From: an uncultured Synergistota bacterium | GTDB taxonomy: Bacteria; Synergistota; JAGHAJ01 | Direction: 5' to 3' | DNA length: 64,000 nt | Assembly: GCA_964559865.1 (NCBI GenBank) | Contig: CAZLJD010000021.1 | Location: 57,999 to 121,998 of the forward strand | In this document: one piece after another, positions 22,235 through 47,688 of the stretch | How positions within the stretch are numbered: position 1 is the stretch's first letter | Layout of the letters: each line of letters opens with the position of its first letter | Translations under genes and position numbers: made by a program | The notes under the pieces: generated by a model | Database searches by the model: none | What the model saw: only the letters and a program-made list of their open reading frames with translations | What the model was told of the DNA's origin: nothing

Positions 22235-23113
22235 ATGTTTACATCACCGGCAGATGTAAGGGCAAAGTTTGCACAGCGCTACTACATAGTGGACAAAGGT
22301 ACTGCTACAGTAGTCTACATAGCAGTGAAACTACAAAAACCCATCCTCGTCGAGGGGCCAGCCGGTGTGGGGAAAACAGACCTTGCAAGGGTGCTTGCCG
22401 ATGCCACTAACTCAAGGTTAATCAGACTTCAGTGTTATGAAGGTATAGATTCAACCAGTGCTCTGTACGACTGGAACTACCAAAAGCAACTCTTGAGAAT
22501 ATACGCAGACAGAGAGCAAAAAAAAAGCTGGAAAGATGTAAAACAAACCATCTACTCAGAGGAATTCTTACTCCCAAGACCACTCTTAATGGCTATAACA
22601 TCAAAAGAACAAACGGTTTTACTCATAGATGAAATAGACAAAAGCGATGAAGAATTTGAAGCCTTTCTCTTGGAATTCCTATCCGACTATCAGGTAAGCA
22701 TTCCAGAAATAGGGACTGTTAAAGCAAACAATATACCTATAGTGGTACTGACCAGCAACAATGCAAGGGATTTTGGAGATGCACTAAAAAGGAGGTGCAT
22801 ACACCTGTACCTCGACTATCCCCCATTGGAAAGAGAGATGGAGATCGTCAAGCTAAAGGTCCCTGAGATACAAGACCAACTACTCAGAGAGATCACCCAC
22901 TTCGTACAAAAGCTAAGAGAAATGAAACTCAAAAAACCACCAAGTATCGCAGAGACAATAGAATGGGCAAAAACCCTACTGGAGCTGGATGTAGAAAGTT
23001 TGACAGACGACATAGTGAAAGCTACCTCTGGTGTCATACTAAAGTATAGGAGTGATGTGGAAGCGCTGAATTCAATAGATACAAACAGTCTCCTTTCTTC
23101 CATAACCCACTGA
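22235..23113 (+). CDS. MoxR/CoxD-like AAA+ ATPase (AAA_5)
   Basis: 292 aa. Walker A EGPAGVGKTDLARVLA, Walker B LLIDEIDK. Followed by a vWA protein as in coxD-coxE maturation pairs. Confidence 0.8.
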   Translation: MFTSPADVRAKFAQRYYIVDKGTATVVYIAVKLQKPILVEGPAGVGKTDLARVLADATNSRLIRLQCYEGIDSTSALYDWNYQKQLLRIYADREQKKSWKDVKQTIYSEEFLLPRPLLMAITSKEQTVLLIDEIDKSDEEFEAFLLEFLSDYQVSIPEIGTVKANNIPIVVLTSNNARDFGDALKRRCIHLYLDYPPLEREMEIVKLKVPEIQDQLLREITHFVQKLREMKLKKPPSIAETIEWAKTLLELDVESLTDDIVKATSGVILKYRSDVEALNSIDTNSLLSSITH

Positions 23114-23130
23114 GGAGAAGTCAAGAGGTC

Positions 23131-23700
23131 ATGGAAGAAAAGATCATAGAGCGTGTGGTCAAGTTCTGTAGACTTCTTCGGAGATACGGTATAAATATTT
23201 CCTATTCTGAGAGTATGGATGCACTGCGAGCTATATCGGAAGTCGGAATTGACAAAGAAGACTTTTACTATGCTCTTAAGTGCACATTGATAAAGGACGA
23301 AGCCAATGCAAAGGTATTTTACGGACTGTTTCAGCTCTTCTTCAATCCACCAAATAAATCCTCCAAAGCCGAATCAGACAGAGGTGATAGCCTAAACGGA
23401 CTCAAAAATAAAGATCTCCTTCAAGGTGAGACAAAGATGGTAGAAAGTGCCCAAGGCGTTGGAACAAATGCAAATGACAACTTAAACAGCTACTTCAAAG
23501 AGCCCATACACATACTACTGGCAAAAGCGGTAAAGTCTGAAGATTACAAGCTGATGCAATTCATAGCACACAAAGCTGTACAAGACCTCGGTGCAATAGA
23601 CCCCCAAAGGGACGATATAAAAACACTCTTAAAGAAAGCAAAGGAAAACATAGGTTGGGACAAAGCAGTAAGCATCTTGTTCGGGCCAAATACCTTTTAA
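23131..23700 (+). CDS. CoxE-like protein, N-terminal domain. Detached from its vWA domain by an in-frame TAA.
   Basis: 189 aa resembling N-terminal regions of VWA_CoxE family proteins. Ends at TAA 23698-23700. The next ORF is in the same frame 12 nt later. Confidence 0.6.
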   Translation: MEEKIIERVVKFCRLLRRYGINISYSESMDALRAISEVGIDKEDFYYALKCTLIKDEANAKVFYGLFQLFFNPPNKSSKAESDRGDSLNGLKNKDLLQGETKMVESAQGVGTNANDNLNSYFKEPIHILLAKAVKSEDYKLMQFIAHKAVQDLGAIDPQRDDIKTLLKKAKENIGWDKAVSILFGPNTF

Positions 23701-23712
23701 GGAGAAATATCC

Positions 23713-24612
23713 TTGAATCCTGAAGAGAGAAGAAACTCTTTCCAAGATTTTATGAGATGGAATAAAGGATTGCAATATGTAGAAGATCTCATACTCAAAC
23801 TTTTAGTGGAGCTAATGAACGAACGCCAAGCAACCACATCTAAAGAGAACTATCCGTGTAAAACACCTGAAGAAACCGAATGGTACCACTTAGAGAACAT
23901 CAAACTTGAAGACTGGGAAATGGAACAGATGAGAGCAAGGCTATCCGTTCTTGCCAAGAAACTCGCAACCAGATGCTCCCTTAGATTCAAAAGAGCTAAA
24001 AGAGGAAACATAGATATCGGAAAGACACTAAAGCAGGCCTGTCAACAAACTTTCGGAATACCCGTAAAGCTAAAGTACAAGGAAAAGATCATATCAAAGC
24101 CAGAGTTAGTTGTGCTGTGCGATGTCTCTCAATCCGTCGAAATATTTAGCCAGTTTCTACTCGAGTTGCTGTGTGTATTACAGAACAAATTCAGATCCAT
24201 GCGCTCATTTCTATTCATAGACACAGTAGATGAAGTAACCGAATACTTTAAAAAGAAGCGCTGCGAGGATGCCATAAAGGACGCCTTGGAGAACGCAAAA
24301 TATTCCCTAAGACCGTACTCAGATTATGGAAAAGTGTTTAACACATTTGAAAGGGTGTATTTACCCACCATCTCAAAGAAAAGCACCCTAATAATACTCG
24401 GAGATGCAAGAAACAACTACTATCCTGAATCTGGAGAATCACTCAAAAGGATAAGTCAACATGTAAAGCGTGTTTTGTGGGTAAATCCACAGCCAGCAGA
24501 GGAATGGAACAAACAGGACAACATAATGGCTATATTCTCGAGGTGCTGCTCTGCTGTCTTTGAATGCAGAAATCTAAAGCAGCTTACCAGAGTTATAGAA
24601 GAGCTCATATAA
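23713..24612 (+). CDS. CoxE-like von Willebrand factor A domain protein (C-terminal part)
   Basis: 299 aa from TTG 23713 with an AAGGAG SD overlapping the upstream stop. vWA/MIDAS-like LVVLCDVSQSV motif. Confidence 0.65.
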   Translation: MNPEERRNSFQDFMRWNKGLQYVEDLILKLLVELMNERQATTSKENYPCKTPEETEWYHLENIKLEDWEMEQMRARLSVLAKKLATRCSLRFKRAKRGNIDIGKTLKQACQQTFGIPVKLKYKEKIISKPELVVLCDVSQSVEIFSQFLLELLCVLQNKFRSMRSFLFIDTVDEVTEYFKKKRCEDAIKDALENAKYSLRPYSDYGKVFNTFERVYLPTISKKSTLIILGDARNNYYPESGESLKRISQHVKRVLWVNPQPAEEWNKQDNIMAIFSRCCSAVFECRNLKQLTRVIEELI

Positions 24613-24637
24613 CTACAAGAGGATGGGAGGAGTTAAC

Positions 24638-25372
24638 ATGGCAATCAAAAACTGTTTCAGTGTCGTAGGCAATCACAACAGCGGAAAAACCACACTAATA
24701 GAAGAACTAATAAAAGAGCTAAAGACAAGAAACCTCTCCGTATCAACCATAAAACATGCCGTACACTTCAACTTCAATAGTAGCAACAAAGGTGATTCTG
24801 AAAGGTTGTTCCAAGCCGGCAGCAAAACATCTATAGCATTGTTCGAAGACGGAACCCAGCTGTACACATCTCCTACAAAGTTAAGAAGTGCACTCTCTTA
24901 CATCAACAGTGATATCCTAATACTAGAGGGGTTCAAAGGAGAAGCAGTTCCAAACATAGTGAGAGCCAAGAATACACAGGACGCCAAGAAGCTCATAAAT
25001 GAGCTTACAATTGCAATAGTTACAGACGAAGAAGGTAACTTGGAAGATACACCATCATTCAGGCCTCACCAGATAAGAGAGATAACAGAGGTGGCACTAA
25101 AACATTCGTTCCCACCACTCCCACTGTTAGACTGTGGGCACTGTAAGGGTGGAACATGTTTCAAAATGGCATCTATGATACTAAAGGGAGAAGGCTCTAT
25201 AAAGGATTGTGTGGTGCTTCCATCAAAAGTCAGACTAAAGGTAAACAATGTGAGCATCCCCCTAAACCCATTCGTAGAGCAGATCATTACATCTGTCGTC
25301 GGTTCATTGGTAGGCATACTAAAAGATACTACAAAGGAGATGAAAGAGATAGACCTCCACATAAAGCTGTAA
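24638..25372 (+). CDS. MobB-like P-loop protein (molybdopterin-guanine dinucleotide biosynthesis adaptor) with C-terminal Cys-containing extension
   Basis: ATG 24638 with GGGAGGAG SD 5 nt upstream. P-loop VVGNHNSGKTTLIEEL is typical of MobB. The C-terminal 80 aa (DCGHCKGGTCFKMASMILKGEG...) are of unknown family. Confidence 0.6.
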   Translation: MAIKNCFSVVGNHNSGKTTLIEELIKELKTRNLSVSTIKHAVHFNFNSSNKGDSERLFQAGSKTSIALFEDGTQLYTSPTKLRSALSYINSDILILEGFKGEAVPNIVRAKNTQDAKKLINELTIAIVTDEEGNLEDTPSFRPHQIREITEVALKHSFPPLPLLDCGHCKGGTCFKMASMILKGEGSIKDCVVLPSKVRLKVNNVSIPLNPFVEQIITSVVGSLVGILKDTTKEMKEIDLHIKL

Positions 25373-25429
25373 ACTTTGCGACAATAACTGTAAATATATA
25401 CAACTTTACAAAAAAGCAAGAAGTAATAA

Positions 25430-25450
25430 TTTGTTGAAATATTCAACAAA
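25430..25450. promoter_or_regulatory. Perfect palindrome TTTGTTGAA-ATA-TTCAACAAA just upstream of a strong promoter. Candidate operator.
   Basis: Seen directly in the sequence. It shares TTGTTGAAAT with the imperfect palindrome at 32994-33019. Confidence 0.4.
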
Positions 25451-25456
25451 CTTTCC

Positions 25457-25485
25457 TTGACAATGACGGTGAAACCCTATAAAAT
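25457..25485 (+). promoter_or_regulatory. Sigma-70-like promoter
   Basis: TTGACA (25457-25462), then 17 nt, then TAAAAT (25480-25485). A strong SD (AGAAGGAGGT) precedes ATG 25522. Confidence 0.45.
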
Positions 25486-25521
25486 ATTGCTATAATAAAA
25501 CCCCAGAAGGAGGTATGCTAC

Positions 25522-26259
25522 ATGAGGAGAGTTGTTCCCACAAGATTGAGAAAGGACAAGTACACATTCTCCGCAGAAGAATTGGAAGGTATGTTTTCCG
25601 TACCATCGAAGATGCCAAAATGGGAGCCGATGTACACAGAGCTCACACACAGAGATGGCAGTAAACACCAGGTACTAATCAGAGAGATCAAGAAAGAGGA
25701 GATTGACCCAATGCTTGCATTCATCAAAAGGTACACAGAAATCGACTACGACTACTACGACATAGTTTCTGCAAGGGTATATGCAGAGCTACTTGCCATC
25801 AAAAGAAACAGAATGAAAGACGAATACTTCTTCCTTGCACTGGAAAATGGAAGTCCTGTGGGAATAATAAACGGTAGGATCATGAACAAAGATATAAATA
25901 TAAGCCTCCACACAATGGTATTTAAGAGAAGGATTAACGCTGGTCCAATACTTTTCTACGCAAAGTGCTGGTATGCATTCGAAATCTGTGGTCAACAGGA
26001 ATTTTGGGCAACATTCGAAAGTTACAATGGCTGGAGACTTGCAGGTCTCGGCATGGGACTACCCACCTACAAGTGGCCAGATGTCCAACACGAGCTTGGT
26101 GGCGCTAAGGTTTACTATCTCTCACGTGAGATGTGGGAACTAACAATAAGAGACGAGTATCCAGAGCAGGTAGCAAGGGCAAAACTCATGCCTAATCCTC
26201 CAAAAGAGTTAATCGAAGCAAACGAAAAGCTGATAATTCCAGAAGAAATAGAGGTTTAA
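25522..26259 (+). CDS. Uncharacterized conserved 245-aa protein. Paralog of 40979-41716. Family not recognised.
   Basis: Clear coding periodicity, strong promoter and SD, and an intrinsic terminator downstream. High similarity to the second copy across the YYDIV.ARVYAE...NGR.MN.DINISLHTM.FKR...YAKC.Y.FE...QEFWAT.ESYNG...GLGM..P.Y.WPDVQHELGGA.VYY block. Confidence 0.7.
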   Translation: MRRVVPTRLRKDKYTFSAEELEGMFSVPSKMPKWEPMYTELTHRDGSKHQVLIREIKKEEIDPMLAFIKRYTEIDYDYYDIVSARVYAELLAIKRNRMKDEYFFLALENGSPVGIINGRIMNKDINISLHTMVFKRRINAGPILFYAKCWYAFEICGQQEFWATFESYNGWRLAGLGMGLPTYKWPDVQHELGGAKVYYLSREMWELTIRDEYPEQVARAKLMPNPPKELIEANEKLIIPEEIEV

Positions 26260-26274: not shown

Positions 26275-26310
26275 GGGGGAGAAGCTTAAGCTTCTCCCCC
26301 TTTTGTTTTT
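26275..26310 (+). terminator. Rho-independent terminator (possibly bidirectional) between convergent genes
   Basis: GGGGGAGAAGC-TTAA-GCTTCTCCCCC is an 11-bp perfect stem. It is followed by TTTTGTTTTT. Confidence 0.7.
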
Positions 26311-28660
26311 ACTCTACTTCTTTCTTTCCCTGTAGAATGGCAAGCGCTACCTTCTCCGCAGTAACAGGCATAGATTTAATTCTGATACCAAGCGCATCCT
26401 CAACAGCATTTGCAACCATAGGAGCAGCAGGTATCATTGTATGCTCAGATATTCCTCTTGCACCAAACGGGCCGTCAGGTTGCGGAACCTCCACTATTAT
26501 AGGTACTATTTCTTTAGGCACATCCATTGCGGTGGGTATCTTGTAGTCAGTAAAGTTAGGGTTCAATACCTTACCCTTATCATCAAATCTCATATCTTCG
26601 TAGAGCACAGTTGCCAAGCCCTGGAGCAGACCACCGTTTATCTGACCCTTCACAAGATCCGGATTTATCGCTTTACCCGCATCTACAGCTTCCACTGCCT
26701 TCAGAACTCTCATCTTGCCAGTTTCCTTGTCTATTTCAAGCACCACGGCACCAGCACCAACCGTGTAGTGCACATTTGGGTGTCCTCCCTGCGAAGTCTC
26801 CGGATCGTCTACCGTAGTCGTAAACTCCGGCATAAATATACCCCTACCAAGGATAGGTCCACCTCTATACGTACCATCATGCGTCTGAATACCGTTTATA
26901 ACGAAGTCCTTAAGCGGCAGTTGAAATTCTGGATCAGTCTTGCACTTTACCTTCTCGTCCTCAAGGTATAATGTCTCCTTCTCGAGGTGATATGCCTGAT
27001 GCACAACCTCAAATATCTGCTCACGGGCGTCTAAGGCTGCCCTCTTAACTGCATTACCGCAGGACCAAGTAACATGAGAAGCAACTGTCTGCCATTCGTA
27101 TGGATTCCTATCCGTATCAGGTAGCTCAACTCTTATCTTCTCAATGGGCACAGAGAGTATCTCGGCAGCGATCTGTGCCATAACTGTCATATACCCCTGC
27201 CCTATCTCCATACCAGACACTACGATGTTTATACTACCATCTTCGCTGAACTTCAGGAATGCAGCAGAAGATGTATTCGGAGGCATAGCAGGTGCCTTCC
27301 AGAATATGGCAAACCCCTTACCAATAACCTTGTTGGGATCCTTCGATTCCTCTTTCTTGCCCCACTCAACCTCCTTGGCTACCTTATCTATGGCTTCTAT
27401 CAAACCATTTGGATTCATAGGTGCACCATAGGCGACAGGGTCTCCCCTTCTAATGGCATTTTTTCTTCTAAACTCAACAGGGTCCATACCTATCATCTTC
27501 GCTACTCTCGTCATATGGGACTCAATAGCAAAATGGGTTTCAGAATATCCAAAACCTCTATATGGACCCGCCGCCGGCTTGTTTGTATATACGCATATAG
27601 AGTCTATCCAGACATTAGGTATCCTGTAAGGACCAGTTGCAGAGAGACCCGCTGCATTCACAACATTTGCCCCATACTCTGCATACGGACCAGCATCCCA
27701 GTAAAGCTCATTCTTCAAGGCAACGATCGTACCATCTTTCTTAACCCCTACTTTTATCTTTGAAACAAGTGCCTGTCTCATATATGTGTTGTAGAACTCC
27801 TGTGCCCTCGTCCACCTAACTTTCACCGGATGCCCCTTCACAACCGTAGCAAGAGCCACAGCAAGTATCTCCATCGAAACCCCAGCCTTACCCCCAAAAC
27901 CGCCACCAACATACGGGACCACAACTCTGATATCTTTGTGGCTTATACCCAATGGTGCTAACGCCTGTGCAAACAGATTTCTCTGAGTATGGGGTGACTG
28001 TGAGCTGGACCACACCGTAATCCTTCCAGAATAATCATAAAGGGCAACAGATATATGCGGTTCTATACAGCAATGAGCATACCTCGGCACCCTGTAAGTG
28101 TCCTCAAATACAAAGTCTGCCTCGGCAAACGCCTTTTCAACATCACCCTTTCTGACTTTTCTCCAATGTGCAATATTTGTGCCCGGCTTCGGGAAGTACC
28201 ACGGCACATGCCAGTAATTGGCAAGGTCAGGATGTATTATTGGAGCATTATCCTTTAATGCCTCCATCTGATCGAGCACATAAGGAAGCTCCTCATATTC
28301 TACCTTCACCAGTTTCGCTGCCTTCTTAGCAGCCTTTGGATTTCTCGCCAGGACAGCCGCCACCTGTTCACCGATAAACCTAACCCTATCCTGTGCAAAG
28401 ACATATCTATCGTGCATATACAAACCAAACCTATAAGGGAAATCCTTACCAGTAACTACCTTAACTACGCCCGGAACCTTCTCTGCTTCAGATGTGTCTA
28501 TGCTCTTTATCAAGGCATGCGGATAAGGACTCTCCACTATCTCTGCGTAAAGGAGATTAGGACCAAAATCCAAATCATCTACATACCTGGCAGCACCTGT
28601 AACCTTATCTCTTTCGTCAAGCCTCGTAAACGACTTACCCACATATTTAAGCTCTTCCAT
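26309..28660 (-). CDS. Molybdenum hydroxylase large (molybdopterin-binding) subunit, xanthine dehydrogenase/CoxL family
   Basis: 783 aa. Ald_Xan_dh_C-type N-terminus and the GGGFGGK signature (YVGGGFGGKAG). Sits in an M-S-L operon. Confidence 0.85.
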   Translation of the reverse strand: MEELKYVGKSFTRLDERDKVTGAARYVDDLDFGPNLLYAEIVESPYPHALIKSIDTSEAEKVPGVVKVVTGKDFPYRFGLYMHDRYVFAQDRVRFIGEQVAAVLARNPKAAKKAAKLVKVEYEELPYVLDQMEALKDNAPIIHPDLANYWHVPWYFPKPGTNIAHWRKVRKGDVEKAFAEADFVFEDTYRVPRYAHCCIEPHISVALYDYSGRITVWSSSQSPHTQRNLFAQALAPLGISHKDIRVVVPYVGGGFGGKAGVSMEILAVALATVVKGHPVKVRWTRAQEFYNTYMRQALVSKIKVGVKKDGTIVALKNELYWDAGPYAEYGANVVNAAGLSATGPYRIPNVWIDSICVYTNKPAAGPYRGFGYSETHFAIESHMTRVAKMIGMDPVEFRRKNAIRRGDPVAYGAPMNPNGLIEAIDKVAKEVEWGKKEESKDPNKVIGKGFAIFWKAPAMPPNTSSAAFLKFSEDGSINIVVSGMEIGQGYMTVMAQIAAEILSVPIEKIRVELPDTDRNPYEWQTVASHVTWSCGNAVKRAALDAREQIFEVVHQAYHLEKETLYLEDEKVKCKTDPEFQLPLKDFVINGIQTHDGTYRGGPILGRGIFMPEFTTTVDDPETSQGGHPNVHYTVGAGAVVLEIDKETGKMRVLKAVEAVDAGKAINPDLVKGQINGGLLQGLATVLYEDMRFDDKGKVLNPNFTDYKIPTAMDVPKEIVPIIVEVPQPDGPFGARGISEHTMIPAAPMVANAVEDALGIRIKSMPVTAEKVALAILQGKKEVE

Positions 28661-28672
28661 CTCGCTCCCCCC

Positions 28673-29134
28673 TTACTGTTTCTTGGATGCGTCGAGTATC
28701 GCTTCAATTATAGATACATATCCGGTACATCTACACAAATTACCTGCTATAGCCTCTTTTACTTCCTCCTCAGTAGGATGCGGATTCTTCTCCAATAGCT
28801 CTGTAGCGGTAAGTGTCATACCAGGGGCACAAAAACCACACTGGAATGAATTGTGTTCTATGAAAGACTCCTGCAACGGCGTAAGCCCATCCTTGGACAG
28901 CCCTTCAAGCGTCACTATCTCTGCTCCATCTACCTCTATAGCAAATATGAGACAACTCCTAACCGACTTTCCGTTGAGTAAAATAGTACACGCACCGCAG
29001 TCACCTCTACCGCAAGCGTACTTAGGTGTCTTCACACCCAATTTCCCCCTTAAGACTTCAAGGAGAATGTCATTGGGTTCTACCTCTACACTCCTCATTT
29101 CGCCATTCAGTTTGAATGTTATCTTCTTCTTCAT
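28673..29134 (-). CDS. Molybdenum hydroxylase small subunit, 2x[2Fe-2S] (CoxS/XdhC-ferredoxin type)
   Basis: 153 aa. Plant-type cluster CGRGDCGACT plus the second cluster CGFCAPGM...CRCTGY. Confidence 0.85.
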   Translation of the reverse strand: MKKKITFKLNGEMRSVEVEPNDILLEVLRGKLGVKTPKYACGRGDCGACTILLNGKSVRSCLIFAIEVDGAEIVTLEGLSKDGLTPLQESFIEHNSFQCGFCAPGMTLTATELLEKNPHPTEEEVKEAIAGNLCRCTGYVSIIEAILDASKKQ

Positions 29135-29146
29135 GGCATATTCCCC

Positions 29147-30037: not shown

Positions 30038-30058
30038 TACATTACACCCCCTAACTCT

Positions 30059-31699: not shown

Positions 31700-31711
31700 A
31701 CTATCGCCTCC

Positions 31712-32959: not shown

Positions 32960-32993
32960 TGCTCTGCCTCCTTACTAAAATTGTTTTATTCAA

Positions 32994-36933: not shown

Positions 36934-36952
36934 AAGCAGCAGGAGGATAGCC

Positions 36953-37369
36953 ATGCGGATTAGCGTGTACGATCCACAACGGTGTATAGGGTGTGGAAGC
37001 TGTATGTTTGCATGTGCAAGGAGAGCAGGAGATGGAGGGCTAAGCAATACTGCCATAGCGGTAAGGTCATCTGGAGGGATAAGCAAAGGGTTTAGTGTTA
37101 TTGTATGCAGGGCGTGTACAGACCCTCCCTGTTCAAAGGTGTGTCCCACAAATGCACTGATCCCCAGAAAGGGTGGAGGTGTGATCCTCAATCCTACAAA
37201 GTGTATCGGATGTGAAAACTGCCGAGAAGCATGCCCTATCGGAGCAGTCTTCTGGAACGAGGAGATAAACAAACCCGTAATATGCGTGCAGTGTGGATAC
37301 TGTGTGGAGTTTTGCCCTCATGGAGTACTAAAAATGGAAGATAGTGGGGTGGCTGCACATGTTGGATGA
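36953..37369 (+). CDS. Ferredoxin-like [4Fe-4S] electron-transfer subunit paired with the second AOR
   Basis: 138 aa with CIGCGSCMFAC, CRAC...C, CIGCENCREACP and CVQCGYCVEFCP motifs. Overlaps the AOR start. Confidence 0.8.
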   Translation: MRISVYDPQRCIGCGSCMFACARRAGDGGLSNTAIAVRSSGGISKGFSVIVCRACTDPPCSKVCPTNALIPRKGGGVILNPTKCIGCENCREACPIGAVFWNEEINKPVICVQCGYCVEFCPHGVLKMEDSGVAAHVG

Positions 37370-39881: not shown

Positions 39882-39885
39882 TCAG

Positions 39886-40914
39886 CTACCACCCCTTCCC
39901 TAACATACAATAAGGATAATTACAAACATCACAATGTCTACAAAATCCACCATGCCCCAGCCTCGCAATATCCTCATAGGTAATTATATCTCCTGCAAGA
40001 AGTCTTGGCAATATCACATCAAAGACTGTAATCTTGTAGAAAACACCTGCCGCAGGTATCCCAACAATGGGCACTTCACCCTTATATGCCAAAAGCAACA
40101 TAGAACCCGGCAACACAGGGGAACCATAGCGTATAATCTCTGCACCAGCAGAAGCTATACCACGAGGAGTAACATCATCTGCATCTACCGACATCCCCCC
40201 TGTACACACAACGATCTCTGCCCCCACAGATAAAAACTCCTGTATGGAAGATCTCACCATATCCTCATCATCTGGCACAATTCTGCTACCAATAAGCTCT
40301 GCACCATAATCTTCGACTTTGCTTTTCACAATATCCTTGAACCTATCCTTTATCCTACCCGTATATATCTCCGTGCCAGTCGTAACAAGTGCAACCTTTT
40401 TTTTCACATAAGGTTTCACCTTAACTACATATCTATACTTGGAGGCAACACTCTCAAATAAATTGACATATTCCTTTCTTAGGACAAGAGGAATAGCTCT
40501 AAAACCCGCTATCTTGTCACCCTTCTTTACAGGCGTATTGTTGTGAATTGTAGATACAGAAAACTCCCCTATCATGTTTAATTCAAATACTGCTTCCGCA
40601 TTCACCTTAACCAAACCGTCCACACCGGCTACAAGAGTAATCTTACCTTCAACAGGACCCTCAGAAGAGACATTTTCTCCTTTCATCCACTTCTCCATCA
40701 CATATGCAACATCATTCTCGTGCATCTCATCTGGGGATATTTCAAGCACATATATGTAATTTTTGCCTATATCCTTCAAAAGAGGTATATCCTCTTTTCT
40801 TATCACATGCCCCTTGCGAAAACCGGGACCTTTGTACTCTCCCGGAACAATCTTTGTCAAATCATAAGGTATCGTCATTCCCACCGCATCTTCAACCTTC
40901 ACTCGCTTGAGCAC
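39886..40914 (-). CDS. MoeA/MogA-like molybdopterin-binding (MoCF biosynthesis domain) protein with C-terminal Cys cluster
   Basis: 342 aa. TGGMSVDADD-type motif of MoeA domain 3. C-terminal CRHCDVCNYPYC. Confidence 0.6.
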   Translation of the reverse strand: MLKRVKVEDAVGMTIPYDLTKIVPGEYKGPGFRKGHVIRKEDIPLLKDIGKNYIYVLEISPDEMHENDVAYVMEKWMKGENVSSEGPVEGKITLVAGVDGLVKVNAEAVFELNMIGEFSVSTIHNNTPVKKGDKIAGFRAIPLVLRKEYVNLFESVASKYRYVVKVKPYVKKKVALVTTGTEIYTGRIKDRFKDIVKSKVEDYGAELIGSRIVPDDEDMVRSSIQEFLSVGAEIVVCTGGMSVDADDVTPRGIASAGAEIIRYGSPVLPGSMLLLAYKGEVPIVGIPAAGVFYKITVFDVILPRLLAGDIITYEDIARLGHGGFCRHCDVCNYPYCMLGKGW

Positions 40915-40978
40915 ACTTCATACCCCCCTCATACAAAAAGAGGGACGGGGCCTTCCCAAACCCCATCCCTTCAAACCC

Positions 40979-41716
40979 CTAAACGGTTACCTCATCGGGT
41001 ATAATGAGCTTCTCATTCTTCTTGAGGAGTTCCTCCGGTACGGGTCTCTGGAGTTTTGCACCTATATACCCCTCAAGGTAATCTTTCACAGTACTCTTCC
41101 AGTACTTGTAGTCCACATAGTACACACGGGCACCACCAAGCTCGTGCTGGACATCCGGCCAACGATAAGACGGTTGCGCCATTCCAAGCCCCCATCTCTT
41201 AAAACCATTGTAACTCTCGTATGTAGCCCAGAACTCCTTCTGATTGAGCGTCTCAAATGTATAATCACACTTTGCATAGTACATAGTTGCACCCACTCTG
41301 AAGCCTCTCTTAAATGCCATGGTATGCAAACTAATGTTTATATCTTCATTCATCAACCTACCATTCGCAAAACCTATCAGTTTACCATCTTCAAGTCCCA
41401 ACAACACATAAGGGTCTTTAAGCCTATTCCTGTACCAACCCAATATCTCCGCATATACCCTCGCTCCAACTATGTCATAAAAGTCATGGTCCACATCCAA
41501 GAAGTTACGCAAATACTTTAAAAGAAGGGGTGCTTCTTCTTTCTTAGCAGGCCTTATTACCATTGTTATTTTATCTCCGGCCTTGTTTTTCAGCTCCACC
41601 ATTGCAGGTTCAAACGGTGGGATATCCATAGATGGACCACTCAATATGGGTTCAATCTCCCTGATATTCAATCTAACTTCTTCATAACTTGACTTCTCCG
41701 GTGGTTCTTTCCACAT
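40979..41716 (-). CDS. Uncharacterized conserved 245-aa protein. Paralog of 25522-26259.
   Basis: Same length and conserved blocks as the first copy. SD and ATG are tightly spaced after the carbamate kinase gene. Confidence 0.7.
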   Translation of the reverse strand: MWKEPPEKSSYEEVRLNIREIEPILSGPSMDIPPFEPAMVELKNKAGDKITMVIRPAKKEEAPLLLKYLRNFLDVDHDFYDIVGARVYAEILGWYRNRLKDPYVLLGLEDGKLIGFANGRLMNEDINISLHTMAFKRGFRVGATMYYAKCDYTFETLNQKEFWATYESYNGFKRWGLGMAQPSYRWPDVQHELGGARVYYVDYKYWKSTVKDYLEGYIGAKLQRPVPEELLKKNEKLIIPDEVTV

Positions 41717-41739
41717 AAAACAACACCTCCTAATGTACT

Positions 41740-42687
41740 CTATTTAGCACGCACACGCGTGCCCACCTTGCCTTCCAAAGCATCAAGTGCGTTATCAAGA
41801 GAGCTTATTATAGCCACATCTCCCCCACCTTTAACAAATCTTAATGCTGCCTTAACCTTTGGCCCCATGCTACCAGCCTTAAAGTGTCCCTCTGCCTGAT
41901 ACCTCTCCAACTCTTCAACGGTAACTTCACCGATAGCCTTCTCCTGTGGGGTTCTAAAGTTTATCATTGCATGTGGAACATCTGTAAGTATCAAGAATAT
42001 ATCAGCCTTCACATCCTGCGCAAGCCTTTCGCCAGCAAGGTCCTTATCGATGACCGCTTCAACCCCCTTAAGCGTCCCATCCTCAAGTTTAATAACAGGT
42101 ATGCCACCTCCACCAGATGCAATGACAATTGCCCCTTTCTCTACGAGGGCAGAAACAACCTCCTTTTCCACTATCCCTATAGGGTCAGGAGAAGGCACAA
42201 CCTTCCTCCATCCCCTCCCACTATCTTCTATCCATGTCTCATTTTTCTCAGCCGCCCTCTTCTTCGCCTCCTCCTCGGTATAGAAGGGACCTATAGGTTT
42301 TGTGGGGTTCTGAAATGCAGGATCATCTTTGCTAACAAGCACCTGAGTAATCACCGTAGCTACTTCTCTACGGATGCCCCTCTTAATAAACTCGTTTCTC
42401 AAGCTTTGCTGAATCATATAACCTATCAAACCCTGACTTTCTGCACCACATATATCAAGAGGCATCGCAGGAACGCTATCAGAACCCTTCTCGTTCTGAA
42501 TCAATATTACACCCACCTGGGGTCCATTCCCGTGCGTTATAACAACCTCATAGCCTGCCTCAACCATTCTTACTATCTGGCTGCATGTTCTTCTCACATT
42601 CTCAAATTGCTCCTCAGCAGTACCTTTCTGACCCGGCTGAAGAATAGCATTTCCTCCGAGAGCAACAACAACCCTTTTACCCATCAT
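41740..42687 (-). CDS. arcC: Carbamate kinase
   Basis: 315 aa. [11 protein letters not shown]...[11 protein letters not shown] is the amino-acid-kinase family carbamate kinase signature. Confidence 0.85.
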
Positions 42688-42698
42688 ATCCCCCCTAA

Positions 42699-43463
42699 TT
42701 ATTCATCTTCAAATGCAACAACTCTACAAAAAGCAGACTCCCCACCTTGAAACTTCCAAGGAAACACGCCTATAGTAGTTCTCTTGTTCAAAAACTTGTC
42801 TATCTCTCCCCCTATATTCTCAACATGCAATATGCCTTTGGGGAAGAGATAAGTATGCATAAGCTGATACATTTCTGGCGGGAATATCTTATCCAACGGC
42901 TTACCCAGTTTCCTTTCAGCTTCCGCAGCATACTCCGGCTTGAACTTCCTGAGTATGGTATTCATTGGGTGATCTGCAGAACCACAATCTACTCCTATAA
43001 GCTTTATTTTCATATCCAGCACCCACTCTGCAAACTCCTTATGTGGTCCAGGATGCTTATAAAAATACTTGTTCTCGTCTGCCTCTGGCTGATCAAACGC
43101 ATAGTGGTGAAATCCAGTGTGTATTATCAAAATATCACCAGGCTTAATCTCGACTTTTTTCGTAAAGTGTTCTGGTTTGTAGATCTCATACTCTCCAACT
43201 TCGTCGCTTATGTCTACAACAACACCCGGTCCAAACAGCTCATCCATAGTAAGACTTGCTATGTCCCTTCCACCCGTCTTGAAATGTCTCTGCCCATCAA
43301 GGTGCGTTCCCACATGATTACTGGTTGTGATCAGTTGACCATTAGCACCATGAAAACTCCACCTCTTAAAATACTTCACCTGCAATGGCTCATAAGAGGG
43401 CCATGGAGGTGTCTCAACTCCTGTGGGCTGGGACAAATCATAAGCTTTCAATGTCATAACCAA
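42699..43463 (-). CDS. Cyclase-family (KynB-like) metal-dependent hydrolase, single domain
   Basis: 254 aa with an intact [12 protein letters not shown] motif. Paralogous to both halves of the 546-aa tandem protein. Confidence 0.75.
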
Positions 43464-43470
43464 TCCCTCC

Positions 43471-43659
43471 TCACTTTTTCTTAAGCTTTGAAAGTATAGA
43501 AATCAACTTCTTGTTACCACCTGCTGGAGGCCTCCAATTAACATGGACTGCCTTGTATCCCTTTCCCTTGAGTGTATCATAGAAACTCTTCAAACCCACA
43601 TTGACTACCACTAAATCCTGACCAAACAACTCGTTTATCTTTTCGTTCACCTTCGCCAT
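43471..43659 (-). CDS. Detached C-terminal segment of the FdrA-like protein
   Basis: 62 aa. LVVVNVGLKSFYDTLKGKGYKAVHVNWRPPAGGNKKL resembles, from memory, the extreme C-terminus of E. coli FdrA. It is in the same frame as fdrA, 12 nt after its TAA stop. An SD (AAGGGGGG) overlaps that stop. Confidence 0.55.
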   Translation of the reverse strand: MAKVNEKINELFGQDLVVVNVGLKSFYDTLKGKGYKAVHVNWRPPAGGNKKLISILSKLKKK

Positions 43660-43671
43660 CTCTATCCCCCC

Positions 43672-45225
43672 TTACTTCCCCTTCACTATCTCTATAGCTG
43701 TCCTGACTGCCTGAACATTACTCGGCATAACAACGACCCCGACCTCTTCTAACTTCTTTTGCTGTTCATCAAGGTTCTGCGGATCATCTTTTGTCCCACA
43801 TATAGACGCAACAACGGACAAATATCTACCATCCTTTTCCGCTAATTCCTTTGCCTCTTTAATATAAGGTGCCAGCGCTCCTGCCATATCCTCATTGGAA
43901 CCGTAACCAATAACAATATCAAGGAGTATAACTGCTACTTCAGGGTCTTTCGCCTCCTCCAATATCCTTTTCTGTCTTGTCCTTGGATCTATCATTGGGT
44001 GTGGTTGTCCCTGGGTAAACTCATCTTCACCAAGGTCTATAACGGTGTGCTTTTCACTCTTATATATGTCCTTCAGCTCGTACCCTTTGTGCAACGGGGC
44101 ATTAGAGTAGGTAGGTTCACCAAGTTCCTTTTCTATTAAATACATAGCCTCATCACAGAGCGTACCCCCAGTATAAAGCCCTCTAATATACTTCTGACCA
44201 TCAGCAAGCCTTTCTCTCTCCTTAACTGCCACTCGTTTAATCTGCTCCTCTCCTGGGATCTTTATGTCAGGCTCCCTACCGTCAGACAACGCTACTGCCA
44301 CAAGGGCCGTCTCTTCCAATGTCGTTGGAGCATAAAAGCCGTACTCTTTAACCATTTCAGGATCTCCATTTATAAAATCGACCACCACGGGTTTACTACC
44401 CTCTTTCAATACATCCAAAACCTTCTTTGCAACCTCTGGCGCAGGGGGTTTGGATATCACTACGATAACTTTCGTAGCAGGGTCTTCCTGTAATGCTTTT
44501 ATTCCTGCTATAACCATTTTCCCCCCCACTTCTTTCTTCAGGTCTCTACCACCAGTACCTATAGCCTGCGAGATACCTTTCCCGTTTTTAGCTATAATTG
44601 TGGAAACCTCCTGAAGCCCGGTACCAGAAGCTGCTACGATACCTATGTCACCTCGAGGGACCTCGTTGGCAAATGCGAGAGGAGCACCATTTATTATAGC
44701 CGTTCCACAATCCGGACCCATCATCAAAAGCCCCTTTTCATTAGCAAGGGTTTTAAGCTCTATCTCATCTTCTATTGGCACATTATCGCTAAACATAAAC
44801 ACATGCTTTCCTGCCATAAGCGCCTTTCTCGCTTCGTAAGCAGCATACTCACCTGCCACAGATATCATCACAAGGTTTGCATCAGGCATGTACTCAAAAG
44901 CACCTTCAAGGCTCACAGGAGAGTACTCCTCATCGCCTCCGGTTTCTTTCTTTTTCTTAAGAAGTTCATCTACCTTCTGGTAAGCCTCTTGAAGAATACT
45001 ATCGTCTTCTGCCTCCATTGCAATCACAAGATCATTCGCAGTCGCACCATCCAGTTTGCTGTCGTAAAGTCCAACCACGGAGAGAGACTCCTTATTGTGG
45101 TCCGTTGCCATAGCCACAACCACTTCTTTGATACCCTTCATCTCAGATATTTCCCTACTAACCAACATCAACGTAACCGAGTCATAATAAGAATTTTTCA
45201 CAACCTCAACCCTCTTAACTGACAC
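43672..45225 (-). CDS. fdrA: FdrA-like protein (succinyl-CoA-synthetase-alpha/CoA-binding fold), putative oxamate-carbamoyltransferase subunit
   Basis: 517 aa. N-terminus VKNSYYDSVTLMLVSREISE and central GPDCGTAIINGAPLAFAN...GIVAASGTG blocks match the FdrA family. Confidence 0.75.
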   Translation of the reverse strand: MSVKRVEVVKNSYYDSVTLMLVSREISEMKGIKEVVVAMATDHNKESLSVVGLYDSKLDGATANDLVIAMEAEDDSILQEAYQKVDELLKKKKETGGDEEYSPVSLEGAFEYMPDANLVMISVAGEYAAYEARKALMAGKHVFMFSDNVPIEDEIELKTLANEKGLLMMGPDCGTAIINGAPLAFANEVPRGDIGIVAASGTGLQEVSTIIAKNGKGISQAIGTGGRDLKKEVGGKMVIAGIKALQEDPATKVIVVISKPPAPEVAKKVLDVLKEGSKPVVVDFINGDPEMVKEYGFYAPTTLEETALVAVALSDGREPDIKIPGEEQIKRVAVKERERLADGQKYIRGLYTGGTLCDEAMYLIEKELGEPTYSNAPLHKGYELKDIYKSEKHTVIDLGEDEFTQGQPHPMIDPRTRQKRILEEAKDPEVAVILLDIVIGYGSNEDMAGALAPYIKEAKELAEKDGRYLSVVASICGTKDDPQNLDEQQKKLEEVGVVVMPSNVQAVRTAIEIVKGK

Positions 45226-46084
45226 TAACGATCCCTCCTTTTATAAGAATCTCCAAAGCCATAGCCACTCCGGTTAACCAATCACTTCCAGATGTGGCAC
45301 CAACACCAACCACATCAGACATAGCCTTATAAAACACACTTCCACCATCCACAAAGGTACTCCAAAACCTCTGATACACTTCAGGGACTTTGCCATGATA
45401 TAGATTGAATAGCATGTGTGCGCTAACCGCCGTAGTAGCATAAAACAACTCATCTTTTACATCGCCCAACCACGGTGCATCTCCAAGGAAGACACAATAC
45501 GCAGAAGAAAACCCACCAATCCAATCGTCAAGGGACGGAGTAAGTCCCACCCCTCTGCCCAACATTTTTCTAACATAAAAAGAGCCTCTCCTACCCGCCG
45601 CTACTTCACTCACAAAACATCTCAAGAGTTTGGCAACATCTTCGCAGTCCTGAAAAAATTTCCCGTCAAACAACAAGTGAGATAACTCCCCTTTTCCCTC
45701 TCTCCTAAGAAAATCCAAGACATTCATCAATCTATCAGATATAAGCCGCACATCGAATTTGCACACAGGTAACTTTGCATCCCACAGCTCTACATCCGCA
45801 GACAGAGGAATCCTAACCCTACTTCCCGACCAAACCAGAATTCCATCCTTATCTCTTATAGCAACCCTTCCACGCAAAAAAATATCTTCAAATGGCAGTA
45901 TCCTCCTTACCCTCACGCCAAACGGCACCATATACATACTACTCAACAGCAGGGACACGAACACACCATCCTCAAACACCAAATTCACTACCCTCCTAAA
46001 TACAGAGTGAACCTCCCCTTTTACGGCATCCCCATTCAGACCGTGTAAATCAGCATCTATCTTCTCAGCCAGTATGTTTATCAT
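45215..46084 (-). CDS. ylbF: DUF2877 protein, YlbF homolog
   Basis: 289 aa. GRGVGLTPSLDDW and GATSGSDWLTG blocks correspond to the conserved G.G.GLTPSGDD and GHTSG.D blocks of the YlbF family. Confidence 0.7.
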   Translation of the reverse strand: MINILAEKIDADLHGLNGDAVKGEVHSVFRRVVNLVFEDGVFVSLLLSSMYMVPFGVRVRRILPFEDIFLRGRVAIRDKDGILVWSGSRVRIPLSADVELWDAKLPVCKFDVRLISDRLMNVLDFLRREGKGELSHLLFDGKFFQDCEDVAKLLRCFVSEVAAGRRGSFYVRKMLGRGVGLTPSLDDWIGGFSSAYCVFLGDAPWLGDVKDELFYATTAVSAHMLFNLYHGKVPEVYQRFWSTFVDGGSVFYKAMSDVVGVGATSGSDWLTGVAMALEILIKGGIVSVS

Positions 46085-47688
46085 CAGTATCCCAAGACAT
46101 TGTGTATCTTTATTGCTAACTCTAACTTCAACACATCTTCCGCATTGTCGAGGTCTATACCCAATATGCTTTCTGCCTTTCTGAGCCTGTAAACAACCGT
46201 GTTGTAGTGCAGAAACATCTTCTTCGAAACGGTAGTAACATTTCTGTTACACTCAAAGAACATGTTCAGTGTATTTATTATCTCTTTACGCCTCTGCGTT
46301 GTACCGTAACTAAGCAACCTACCTAAAACTCTATCCCTGAAGCTCTTTAGTTCATCAAACGAAGCAACCTTGTAAAGTAAACCATAGACACCTACATCGT
46401 CCCTAAAAATTATCTTACTCCTATCCAGCTTGCTTCCAATACAAGCAGTCACATACGCATCCTGATAGCTCTTCCACGCATACCTTAACCCATCTACCGG
46501 CTCCCCAACGGCAACGATAGCACTCTTGTCCACAAACGAGCGTTCAAGATTGCTGATCAAGAACTCTAACATAGGAGAAAGCATCTTCCTAAGGTCTACG
46601 CCCTTATCCTTTTCATTTCCTACATCGACAAGCATCACAAAGAACTCCCCTATTACCGAGAAAAGCGCCTTCCTCTTAAACCTATTAGCCACATCCTTTC
46701 CTATGGAGATAAGCCTGTTCCTGACCCTTAGGATAAACTCTGCATCGTTACCAAGATGCTTATCTTTGAGCAAGAAAACCATAACGGCATACTTATCGTG
46801 CAACGAAAGGCCAAACACTCCAGCCTTCTCCAGCGCAAGAGATACTTTTTCACTATCCCCAGATAGGAGGTCACTCATAAATTCAGATTCGTACTTCAGT
46901 TCCACCTCGCTAATAGCCTGCTCTTTTACAAGCTCCAACGCTATCATCATAGAAGCTATCTCCGCTACTCTAACATCAAGAGGCGTTAACTCCCCGTTCT
47001 TACTGTAAAGGCATATATTACCATAGACATTATCACCAGACGCTATTGGAAAGACATTATACCCTTTCTTCCAGAAGATATCTTCCGTCGGCTCAGAAGG
47101 TAGCCCACTCGGTATCCAATCCTTGGAGAAGAAATATCTTCCATATACCAGATCCCTAACACATATAGGACAACCAACTATCTCAGCAGTTGCATCCATA
47201 ATATCCACTATACTCCCACCAGACAGTACAATGTTCATCAGCTTTTTGTGTGCTTCATCGCTCTTCACAAGTATTGCCATCTGTTTGTTGACTATCATCT
47301 TCATAACTGGTGACATTATGTCAGAGAAAGACAGGTCAAAAGGAATCTCCAAAAGCGGTATGTTGTACCTATCTGCAAACTCTACCATCTCTGGCGGTAT
47401 CTCTGTTAGATATCTCTTAGGTTTTATTCCAATAGCTGCTGCCTTCTTCTCAGCGAGCATGGGAATCAAAGCACACTGCGCCTCTTTATCATCTTTTATG
47501 GAGTATCCAGTCGTAAGCAAGAAATCTCCCGGCCTTATCCAATTGAGGATGTCAGGAACTTCCATAACATTCACATTAGTAACCACATTGGACAAGCCAC
47601 CAAGCCCAGCTACAACCTTTATGTCCTTAAACACATCAAGCTCCAACATATCCTTCACTGTTATTCCTAACTCATTCCTCATTTTCAC
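46084..47688 (-). CDS. PucR-family transcriptional regulator (purine catabolism regulator-like)
   Basis: 534 aa. PucR N-terminal domain. C-terminal HTH_30 (TVSKKMFLHYNTVVYRLRKAESILGIDL). Confidence 0.75.
   Translation of the reverse strand: MKMRNELGITVKDMLELDVFKDIKVVAGLGGLSNVVTNVNVMEVPDILNWIRPGDFLLTTGYSIKDDKEAQCALIPMLAEKKAAAIGIKPKRYLTEIPPEMVEFADRYNIPLLEIPFDLSFSDIMSPVMKMIVNKQMAILVKSDEAHKKLMNIVLSGGSIVDIMDATAEIVGCPICVRDLVYGRYFFSKDWIPSGLPSEPTEDIFWKKGYNVFPIASGDNVYGNICLYSKNGELTPLDVRVAEIASMMIALELVKEQAISEVELKYESEFMSDLLSGDSEKVSLALEKAGVFGLSLHDKYAVMVFLLKDKHLGNDAEFILRVRNRLISIGKDVANRFKRKALFSVIGEFFVMLVDVGNEKDKGVDLRKMLSPMLEFLISNLERSFVDKSAIVAVGEPVDGLRYAWKSYQDAYVTACIGSKLDRSKIIFRDDVGVYGLLYKVASFDELKSFRDRVLGRLLSYGTTQRRKEIINTLNMFFECNRNVTTVSKKMFLHYNTVVYRLRKAESILGIDLDNAEDVLKLELAIKIHNVLGY

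Follow-up and report, generated by a model that had tools for sequence, protein, structure and literature searches.

In Rhodococcus and other aerobes, oxidative pyrimidine degradation relies on uracil/thymine dehydrogenase (EC 1.17.99.4), barbiturase (EC 3.5.2.1), and ureidomalonase (N-malonylurea hydrolase; EC 3.5.1.95). This route is mentioned in PMC4051656 and PMC3758960. Anaerobic urate pathways of gut bacteria and Escherichia coli involve ygeW-ygeX-ygeY-hyuA-yqeA together with xdhD, ygfK, and ssnA, and neither of the two 2025 preprints on them mentions cyclase, FdrA, or oxamate (10.1101/2025.04.24.650524, 10.1101/2025.05.19.654654). AllFGH of E. coli was shown in 2024 to be an oxamate carbamoyltransferase (OXTCase), which interconverts oxalurate plus phosphate and oxamate plus carbamoyl phosphate and is encoded in the same operon as the carbamate kinase AllK (Kim & Kim 2024, PMC11326118). 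Here, we describe a gene island at positions 22235–47688 of a 64,000-nucleotide stretch of DNA (the window) from an uncultured Synergistota bacterium (contig CAZLJD010000021.1, positions 57,999 to 121,998), in which homologs of AllFGH and a carbamate kinase accompany a molybdenum (Mo) hydroxylase, cyclase-family hydrolases, and a nucleobase permease. The island is most likely a non-orthologous, anaerobic version of the oxidative pyrimidine (barbiturate) pathway, in which energy would be kept via carbamoyl phosphate. A full-text literature search found no published description of the cluster; subscription journals lay outside this search, and a prior description is possible.

The open reading frame (ORF) listing and scans with Pfam and NCBIfam confirmed, at the same coordinates, the gene inventory given in a preliminary description of this DNA: the Mo hydroxylase and its maturation proteins, AllF, AllG, and AllH, carbamate kinase, the cyclases, an NCS2 permease, and a PucR regulator were all present. 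That inventory had omitted two GNAT-fold genes (u245a and u245b) and a set of DsrE/DsrF/DsrH-like, ferredoxin, and AOR genes, and AllF proved to be split. The genes that carry the argument are given below, with identities to AllF, AllG, AllH, and AllK obtained by BLASTP against E. coli K-12.

26309–28660, minus strand: Mo hydroxylase large subunit (Pfam)
28673–29134, minus strand: Mo hydroxylase 2Fe-2S subunit (Pfam)
29147–30037, minus strand: Mo hydroxylase FAD subunit (Pfam)
30059–31699, minus strand: fused di-cyclase with two PF04199 domains, candidate ring-opening amidohydrolase (Pfam, 196.3 bits for the two domains)
31712–32959, minus strand: AllG (YlbE, DUF1116), OXTCase-type carbamoyltransferase subunit (Pfam AllG, 312.8 bits; 45% identical to E. 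coli AllG over the full length)
33384–34940, plus strand: NCS2 nucleobase permease (Pfam Xan_ur_permease, 254.5 bits; NAT motif ENIGAIGITR)
41740–42687, minus strand: carbamate kinase (TIGR00746 arcC, 459.7 bits against a cut-off of 358; 43% identical to E. coli AllK)
42699–43463, minus strand: single-domain cyclase Cyc1 with intact metal motif (Pfam PF04199, 123.2 bits)
43471–43659, minus strand: 62-aa ORF, the detached C-terminal segment of AllF (43% identical to residues 509–555, the last 47, of E. coli AllF; E = 4e-12)
43672–45225, minus strand: AllF (FdrA; NCBIfam FdrA, 564.7 bits against a cut-off of 433; 39% identical to E. coli AllF)
45215–46084, minus strand: AllH (YlbF, DUF2877; Pfam AllH, 51.9 bits against a cut-off of 25; 32% identical to E. 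coli AllH over the C-terminal 119 residues only)
46084–47688, minus strand: PucR-family regulator (Pfam PucR, GGDEF_2, and HTH_30)

Conserved gene order across phyla strongly supports the view that these genes form one functional unit; their identities and their linkage are direct observations. Fused di-cyclase relatives were found in at least 545 GTDB species representatives. We compared approximately 160 related loci overall, with samples of 80 di-cyclase loci (35 of them with at least 8 kb on each side) and 84 single-cyclase loci. The di-cyclase loci came from Caldisericota, Chloroflexota, and Myxococcia and Spirochaetaceae metagenome-assembled genomes (MAGs). AllG was encoded directly upstream of the di-cyclase on the same strand in 68 of the 71 loci with enough sequence, and a Mo large subunit was encoded within 8 kb downstream of the di-cyclase in 45 of 48. 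The 35 fully flanked di-cyclase loci contained AllG (35), the large subunit (35), AllF (30), CoxG (25), an NmrA-like protein (19), NCS2 (17), CN_hydrolase (11), a family-III CoA-transferase (10), a single-domain cyclase (6), AllH (1), and carbamate kinase (0). The family of the single-domain cyclase has a broader distribution than that of the di-cyclase, reaching Moorella, Halanaerobiales, Thermotogota, Thermoanaerobacteraceae, Thermaerobacter, and Korarchaeota and Bathyarchaeia MAGs. In genomes and 80 metagenomic loci, its usual context was M-S-L / NCS2 / PucR / AllH-AllF-AllG-Cyc (M, S, and L denoting the FAD, 2Fe-2S, and Mo subunits), as in Moorella thermoacetica, Anoxybacter, and loci L093 and L160, and the cyclase gene was followed by genes for a CoA-transferase and an amidase (CN_hydrolase or amidase signature [AS] family) and occasionally by that for carbamate kinase. 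Whether single or fused, the cyclase always came directly after AllG. Hundreds of species share this arrangement, far more than chance clustering could account for. Among the genes whose co-occurrence elsewhere had been proposed as a check, cyclase, AllG, AllF, and the Mo hydroxylase were found together, whereas carbamate kinase accompanied them in only 2 of the approximately 160 loci and AllH was rare with the di-cyclase.

The assignment of the FdrA, YlbE, and YlbF homologs, on which the preliminary description relied, stands on profile scores and on BLASTP, and the OXTCase activity that it had attached to them is the one demonstrated for E. coli AllFGH (PMC11326118). The C-terminal segment of AllF was fused or free in approximately 100 related loci, and the carbamate kinase gene of the window lies in the same operon as allH-allF. 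Since AllFGH splits the acyl-urea oxalurate with phosphate (PMC11326118), the module should generate an acyl-urea; judged by gene context, the AllFGH substrate here would probably be N-malonylurea and not oxalurate. FdrA resembles succinyl-CoA synthetase in its fold, NCBIfam calls it an acyl-CoA synthetase, related loci contain CoA-transferases and thiolases, and carbamate kinase is seldom adjacent, all of which would suit a reading of AllF/AllG as an ADP-forming acyl-CoA synthetase or of the genes as neighbours lacking a common pathway. We consider this very improbable: gene order is kept across at least five phyla with near-invariant adjacency of the cyclase and AllG, transcarbamylase activity was measured for E. 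coli AllFGH, and carbamate kinase lies inside the operon in the window and in the cluster in two other loci (L160 and L163), which counts in favour of the proposed scheme. A general scheme, in which a base is oxidised, its ring is opened, and carbamoyl phosphate yields ATP, appears likely. This logic of hydroxylation, ring opening, phosphorolysis, and ATP formation had already been put forward in the preliminary description; conserved gene order and the activity demonstrated for E. coli AllFGH strongly support it as a functional unit, but the substrate is probably not a purine, only two of the three cyclase domains keep the metal site, and an in-cluster carbamate kinase is rare elsewhere.

The three cyclase domains of the window shared 44–50% pairwise identity. 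Their placement in the cyclase family, as previously claimed, agreed with the PF04199 scores listed above and with the top Foldseek matches, which were isatin hydrolase (4M8D/4J0N) and KynB; scores against the arylformamidase equivalog TIGR03035 were 62.5 and 55.9 bits, under its cut-off of 223. The HxxTHxDxxxH metal motif was intact in Cyc1 and in the C-domain of the di-cyclase (IHLATHMDGEIH), whereas the N-domain of the di-cyclase was degenerate (NTTGTHLVGETS), three of the four residues of the motif being gone. Three domains of the KynB/isatin-hydrolase type had been proposed; all three belong to PF04199, but only two keep the metal site and, judged by their motifs, look catalytic. An AlphaFold2 model of the di-cyclase recovered the fold, with a predicted local distance difference test (pLDDT) value below 50 over both metal-motif loops, and no active-site reading was taken from it. 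The whole full-length di-cyclase set was covered by one representative in a library of 1.84 billion representatives at 50% identity, and identity was 69–79% even between Caldisericota and Chloroflexota. In comparisons across phyla within the same loci, the di-cyclase (approximately 70%) exceeded AllG (approximately 57%) and AllF (approximately 46%). This uniformity suggests strong constraint or recent horizontal spread. The closest relative of Cyc1 was from Synergistota, and Cyc1 orthologs (55–85% identity) were encoded directly after AllG in clusters of M-S-L, permease, PucR, and AllHFG.

The three-subunit Mo hydroxylase is a candidate uracil/thymine dehydrogenase. It has the three-component Mo/2Fe-2S/FAD architecture of xanthine dehydrogenase (XDH), and its GARGISEH motif aligned with the catalytic-Glu region of 4-hydroxybenzoyl-CoA reductase (4-HBCR); the best PDB matches of the large subunit were the 4-HBCR alpha subunit and nicotinate dehydrogenase. 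The large subunit scored below every NCBIfam equivalog cut-off: XdhA_XDHase was the best at 554.7 against 780, followed by PRK09970 (534.6 against 916), pucD (455.4 against 783.7), and xdhB (322.8 against 849.5). A large subunit of this kind ("type A", with the motifs GGGFG[GS]KAG and GARGxxEH) was present in all single-cyclase clusters, at 41–74% identity to that of the window in one tally and 41–78% in another. At the motif where the XDH Glu was sought, the window large subunit reads GGGFGGK-A. The xanthine-binding Glu of bovine and Rhodobacter XDH (bovine Glu802) follows the GGGFGGK motif, and the window enzyme may lack it; a PDB sub-region search aimed at a bovine XDH alignment of the Mo subunit recovered, at the threshold used, no enzymes other than nicotinate dehydrogenase and 4-HBCR.

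A different Mo large subunit was found in most Chloroflexota di-cyclase clusters (loci L014–L082; e.g., L040, 13158–15506). It was 28–32% identical to that of the window, carried a form-II CoxL-like motif, (P/A)VRGAGR, and had a CoxG partner. This variant may give a hint to the physiological role of some homologs annotated as "form II CO (carbon monoxide) dehydrogenase".

Genes for entry and exit in related loci bear on the substrate. The in-cluster permease of M. thermoacetica scored 649.8 bits against the NCBIfam uracil-permease equivalog (cut-off 477) and 483 bits against E. coli UraA, with which it shares an identical NAT motif, ENIGVMAITR. Among E. coli proteins, UraA was the top match of 14 of the 16 permeases from single-cyclase loci and of all 27 di-cyclase-locus permeases (of 34) lying outside the clade of the window permease. 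On the exit side, the CN_hydrolase and the family-III CoA-transferase each occurred in more than 35 related loci. The best PDB match of the former was yeast Nit3 omega-amidase, whose substrates are monoamides of dicarboxylates, and that of the latter was SUGCT, a dicarboxylate transferase (396 bits), with Frc and YfdE at 198–245 bits. The AS-family amidase of relatives was also considered as a malonamidase; its best match was a peptide amidase, and it was not used as evidence. Complete malonate decarboxylase sets adjoined the cluster in two loci: after the cluster in L098 come a Na+-decarboxylase beta subunit, MdcA (904.8 bits against a cut-off of 789), MdcD, MdcE, and MdcG- and MdcB-like proteins, and L134 is flanked by MdcA (933 bits against 789), MdcC, and MdcD. 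Mmd-type carboxyltransferases or Na+ pumps flanked the cluster in Anoxybacter fermentans, L163, and four Chloroflexota loci, and an alternative tail of u245, thiolase, and DUF35 was found in Moorella and approximately eight other loci. Minimal clusters encoded a single ring-opening hydrolase, which fits a monocyclic base. The uracil permeases and the tails for dicarboxylate monoamides and malonate in relatives therefore argue for a pyrimidine ring, passing from uracil through barbiturate to N-malonylurea, and against the purine label that the island had been given.

The same genes can be set against a genuine oxalurate pathway, in which the Mo enzyme and cyclases would make oxalurate from a hydantoin, parabanate, or imidazolone-type heterocycle, AllFGH would act as in E. 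coli, and oxamate would be converted to oxalate. Oxalurate is the only known AllFGH substrate (PMC11326118), isatin hydrolase, the top structural match of the cyclases, cleaves a parabanate-like alpha-keto lactam, and the CoA-transferase family includes the oxalate CoA-transferases Frc and YfdE. However, parabanate is converted to oxalurate spontaneously at neutral pH (PMC5703782), which would make a highly constrained hydrolase needless, and the CoA-transferase is far closer to SUGCT than to Frc. Moreover, the neighbouring decarboxylases are of malonate or methylmalonyl-CoA types and not thiamine pyrophosphate-dependent oxalyl-CoA decarboxylase, and the permeases are of the uracil type. We regard an oxalurate pathway as improbable.

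Returning to the pyrimidine (uracil/thymine) assignment, we give it a probability of roughly 50% for the island of the window, on the basis of context in related loci. Several observations weigh against it. The window permease, whose NAT motif is E-type, forms a separate NCS2 clade with those of Caldisericota and of L093, its closest relative; its best E. coli match was UacT, with 129 bits as against 91 for UraA, and its best NCBIfam model was the xanthine permease pbuX (201 bits, below the cut-off). The window held no malonate decarboxylase, CoA-transferase, CN_hydrolase, or AS amidase. Because the permease is of another clade and malonate genes are absent here, we infer the substrate from relatives. 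The top NCBIfam models for the large and FAD subunits were XdhA and XdhB, both below cut-offs. PucR regulators, which occupy an equivalent position in single-cyclase clusters, are classically linked to purine catabolism, and in a Thermotogota locus Cyc-M-S-L is accompanied by adenine deaminase and lacks AllFGH. Carbamate kinase lay within 10 kb in none of the 80 di-cyclase loci and in 2 of the 84 single-cyclase loci (L160 and L163). AllH was adjacent in only 8 of the 80 di-cyclase loci and was rare in Chloroflexota; one idea is that the degenerate cyclase domain substitutes for AllH in Chloroflexota clusters. Finally, the model offers no explanation for the presence of a di-cyclase and a single cyclase in one organism, for two GNAT-fold paralogs in one island, or for the AOR/DsrEFH/ferredoxin set, which was absent from all of the approximately 160 related loci.

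A purine substrate is the main rival, in which the Mo enzyme would produce xanthine or urate, the cyclases would open the pyrimidine and/or imidazolone ring to yield a ureido-imidazole or ureido-uracil, and AllFGH phosphorolysis would supply the kinase for ATP formation. The PucR regulator, the XdhA and XdhB models, the matches of the window permease to pbuX and UacT, and the adenine deaminase of the Thermotogota locus would all suit it, and the two intact cyclase sites could serve the two rings of a purine. Set against this are XDH equivalog scores far under the cut-offs, a GGGFGGK-A motif that may lack the xanthine-binding Glu of XDH, in-cluster permeases of relatives that mostly resemble uracil permease, and minimal clusters with one ring-opening hydrolase; the malonate decarboxylase, Mmd-type, SUGCT-like, and omega-amidase tails fit no known purine route. 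On balance, we consider a purine substrate unlikely.

For the pyrimidine assignment, the reactions would run as follows, each of them read from the context of related loci. The NCS2 permease would bring in uracil or thymine, and the Mo/FAD/Fe-S hydroxylase would act at C6 to yield barbiturate or 5-methylbarbiturate. A cyclase-family metal hydrolase (the di-cyclase and/or Cyc1) would open the ring to N-malonylurea (ureidomalonate), a homolog of oxalurate that is longer by one carbon. The complex of AllG, AllH, and AllF, the last together with the 62-aa tail, would then convert N-malonylurea and phosphate to carbamoyl phosphate and malonamate, and carbamate kinase would use carbamoyl phosphate and ADP to form ATP, NH3, and CO2. 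Malonamate would be deamidated, in relatives by an omega-amidase-like or AS-family amidase and in the window possibly by the second cyclase or the GNAT-fold proteins, and the resulting malonate would be converted to acetyl units. PucR would probably regulate the genes from the divergent promoter region at 32960–33383, and the CoxD, CoxE, XdhC, MobB, and MoCF proteins would serve the maturation of the Mo enzyme. The remaining features of the island are as follows.

22235–23113, plus strand: AAA+ CoxD/MoxR-type ATPase, Mo-hydroxylase maturation (Pfam AAA_5/AAA; best NCBIfam model, MadB-family AAA ATPase, 291 bits, under the cut-off)
23131–23700 and 23713–24612, plus strand: split CoxE/MadC-type VWA protein, comprising an N-terminal ORF (189 aa, similar to the N-terminus of the MadC-type VWA model) and a VWA ORF (299 aa; VWA_CoxE, 105.6 bits)
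24623–25372, plus strand: MobB-like P-loop protein with an Fe-S domain (Pfam MobB and FeS; TIGR00176 mobB, 92.4 bits against a cut-off of 76.2)
25522–26259, plus strand: u245a, divergent GNAT-fold protein of 245 aa (50% identical to u245b)
32960–33383, no strand: divergent promoter region separating the allG and permease operons, with promoter-like sites at 33244–33271 (plus strand; 11/12 matches) and 33088–33060 (minus strand) that are consensus matches only
35023–35406 and 35415–35873, plus strand: two small ORFs after the permease (127 aa, apparently membrane-associated, and 152 aa), co-occurring with the permease clade
35880–39122, plus strand: DsrE/DsrF/DsrH-like trio, 4Fe-4S ferredoxin (polyferredoxin), and 592-aa AOR-family W/Mo oxidoreductase (Pfam, NCBIfam), with neighbouring genes overlapping or separated by gaps of at most 19 nt
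39111–39881, minus strand: XdhC-family molybdenum cofactor (Moco) insertion chaperone (Pfam, NCBIfam)
39886–40914, minus strand: protein with MoCF_biosynth as its sole domain
40941–40970, minus strand: intrinsic-terminator-like hairpin closing the pucR-allH-allF-cyc-arcC-u245b operon (13-pair stem with 7 GC pairs, T-run)
40979–41716, minus strand: u245b, divergent GNAT-fold protein (AlphaFold2 model with pLDDT 79.5; top Foldseek matches GNAT acetyltransferases, template modelling score approximately 0.5)

These genes fall into four blocks. The plus strand at 22235–26259 encodes, in order, the CoxD/MoxR-type ATPase, the split CoxE-type VWA protein, the MobB and Fe-S protein, and u245a. The minus-strand operon at 26309–32959 encodes AllG, the di-cyclase, and the FAD, 2Fe-2S, and Mo subunits with gaps of 12–21 nt. 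Divergent from it, the plus strand at 33384–39122 encodes the NCS2 permease, the two small ORFs, the DsrE/F/H-like trio, ferredoxin, and AOR with gaps of at most 82 nt. The minus strand at 39111–47688 holds xdhC and the MoCF_biosynth gene, the terminator-like hairpin, and the operon of pucR, allH, allF, the 62-aa ORF, cyclase, carbamate kinase, and u245b. The MoCF protein had been labelled MoeA-like, and only the MoCF_biosynth domain of that label was recovered; a counterpart (47% identity) follows the cluster in L093. The two small ORFs always follow the NCS2 permease of the window clade in Caldisericota and Spirochaetaceae loci and possibly encode accessory subunits. For the AOR/DsrEFH set, sulfur or selenium delivery and aldehyde oxidation are possibilities.

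Sequence searches with u245 gave no Pfam, NCBIfam, or PDB match. The family showed 60–75% identity across Elusimicrobiota, Chloroflexota, Caldisericia, and Deltaproteobacteria, and a member lay near the module in 16 of the 35 fully flanked di-cyclase loci. Elsewhere, its contexts were heterogeneous, including thiolase with DUF35, Iso_dh with HMGL-like and CoA-transferase genes, and solitary genes.

Pfam-marked gene calls on the same contig placed housekeeping genes on both sides of the island: ThrRS, IF3, L35, L20, thymidylate kinase, and holB on one flank and TruA, GroES/EL, TsaD, RecN, NAD kinase, and Dxs on the other. Family scans across the 64-kb window detected no allantoinase, allantoate amidohydrolase, ureidoglycolate enzyme, or YgeW/OTC (ornithine transcarbamylase)-type transcarbamylase, in agreement with the absence of allantoin-pathway and YgeW-type genes noted in the preliminary description. 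Likewise, none of the genes in the window belonged to the allB, allC, allE, or allD families, and the YgeW, YgeX, YgeY, HyuA, SsnA, and YgfK families were not detected there. Among the island genes, no Pfam family of the AtzD/cyanuric-acid-hydrolase-type barbiturase or of a hydrolytic ureidomalonase was found. When the window and 13 related loci were scanned with Rfam for purine, xanthine, and Moco riboswitches, a tRNA was the sole match.

Upstream of the island, the region at 11.6–22.2 kb was considered as part of it and rejected, as its genes never co-occur with the module in related loci. The plus-strand cluster at 11643–20856 encodes a glycyl-radical enzyme, its activase (19891–20856), ferredoxin, an AOR (14822–16825), a PadH-like flavoprotein, a YaaH-type carboxylate channel, and DUF6282, and a two-component system lies 5' of it at 9460–11540. 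The glycyl-radical enzyme was closest to indoleacetate decarboxylase (672 bits, with an equivalog cut-off of 1100), and the cluster is possibly a new arylacetate-type glycyl-radical enzyme system. The gene at 20840–22168 (plus strand) encodes a PreA-like protein combining DHO_dh and two [4Fe-4S] (177.6 bits, cut-off 335), and 67 nt separate its end from the CoxD-like gene. True pyrK-pyrD-pyrE genes stand ahead of the orthologous cluster in Moorella; these pyrimidine-related neighbours may be significant or may be incidental. Downstream, a hydantoin-racemase-family gene (49984–50691, minus strand) was also rejected: it encodes a CuyB-type cysteate racemase (234.9 bits against a cut-off of 190), is cut off from the island by housekeeping (tRNA and ribosome-related) genes, and is probably unrelated to it. 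Coding-strand GC skew was very strong across the window. The window GroEL shares a 90%-identity cluster with a Synergistota MAG; together with the closest Cyc1 relative, this points to an uncultured Synergistota bacterium as the probable host.

Beyond this island, the related loci raise the prospect of a widespread, undescribed anaerobic "phosphorolytic barbiturate pathway" in several phyla, a tentative proposal whose chances we would place just short of even. It would make one separate Mo hydroxylase clade the long-orphan uracil/thymine dehydrogenase, the cyclases non-homologous barbiturases, and the AllFGH-type enzymes N-malonylurea:phosphate carbamoyltransferases. Two forms of energy conservation would operate, ATP via carbamate kinase and a Na+ gradient via malonate or methylmalonyl-CoA decarboxylation, and the hosts would include Moorella thermoacetica, Anoxybacter, Anaerolineae, Caldisericota, Synergistota, and some archaeal MAGs. 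If true, functions would be gained for a clade of the "xanthine dehydrogenase family", for proteins annotated as "cyclase family" or "kynurenine formamidase", and for non-enterobacterial FdrA/DUF1116/DUF2877, and genes would be assigned to the oxidative pyrimidine route in anaerobes. Pyrimidine bases would then be fermentable with substrate-level phosphorylation, and the AllFGH carbamoyltransferase class would have a wider substrate range. The hypothesis is testable in cultured Moorella thermoacetica, Anoxybacter fermentans, Anaerolinea thermophila, and Bellilinea caldifistulae.

Compared with known systems, the island is not a canonical XDH operon. Its cyclases share their fold with KynB and isatin hydrolase, the latter of which opens a cyclic amide, and the HxxTHxDxxxH motif recurs in Cyc1 and the C-domain of the di-cyclase. 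However, they are only distantly related to these enzymes (E ~1e-7) and constitute a distinct, very conserved subfamily, one of the window proteins is a pseudo-dimer formed by fusion, with one site degenerate, and their context is nucleobase rather than tryptophan metabolism.

The anaerobic urate pathways would share with the island an anaerobic nucleobase route, a Mo hydroxylase, ring-opening amidohydrolases, a carbamoyltransferase, and ATP formation by carbamate kinase. The island differs in its carbamoyltransferase, which is of the unrelated AllFGH type, and it is not the YgeW-type urate pathway, because YgeW, YgeX, YgeY, HyuA, SsnA, and YgfK are all missing from the window.

All three subunits and the kinase of E. 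coli allFGHK are encoded in the window (39%, 45%, 32%, and 43% identity), and the same logic would apply, in which phosphate splits an acyl-urea into an amide and carbamoyl phosphate, from which ATP is then made. Nevertheless, since the window has no oxalurate-forming genes (allB/C/D/E), the island is not the E. coli allantoin/oxalurate system. Furthermore, AllF is split in the window, AllH is missing from most Chloroflexota versions of the module, and the partners in the window are a Mo hydroxylase, cyclases, and a nucleobase permease.

With the oxidative pyrimidine pathway, the module would have in common the intermediates from uracil via barbiturate and N-malonylurea to malonate and a Mo/FAD/Fe-S dehydrogenase at the first step, and a uracil permease and malonate-utilisation genes flank related clusters. 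The hosts of the module are strict anaerobes. In the proposed scheme, ring opening would be catalyzed by the cyclase family instead of the AtzD/barbiturase family, and the ureido group would be removed by AllFGH-type phosphorolysis with formation of ATP rather than by hydrolysis to urea.

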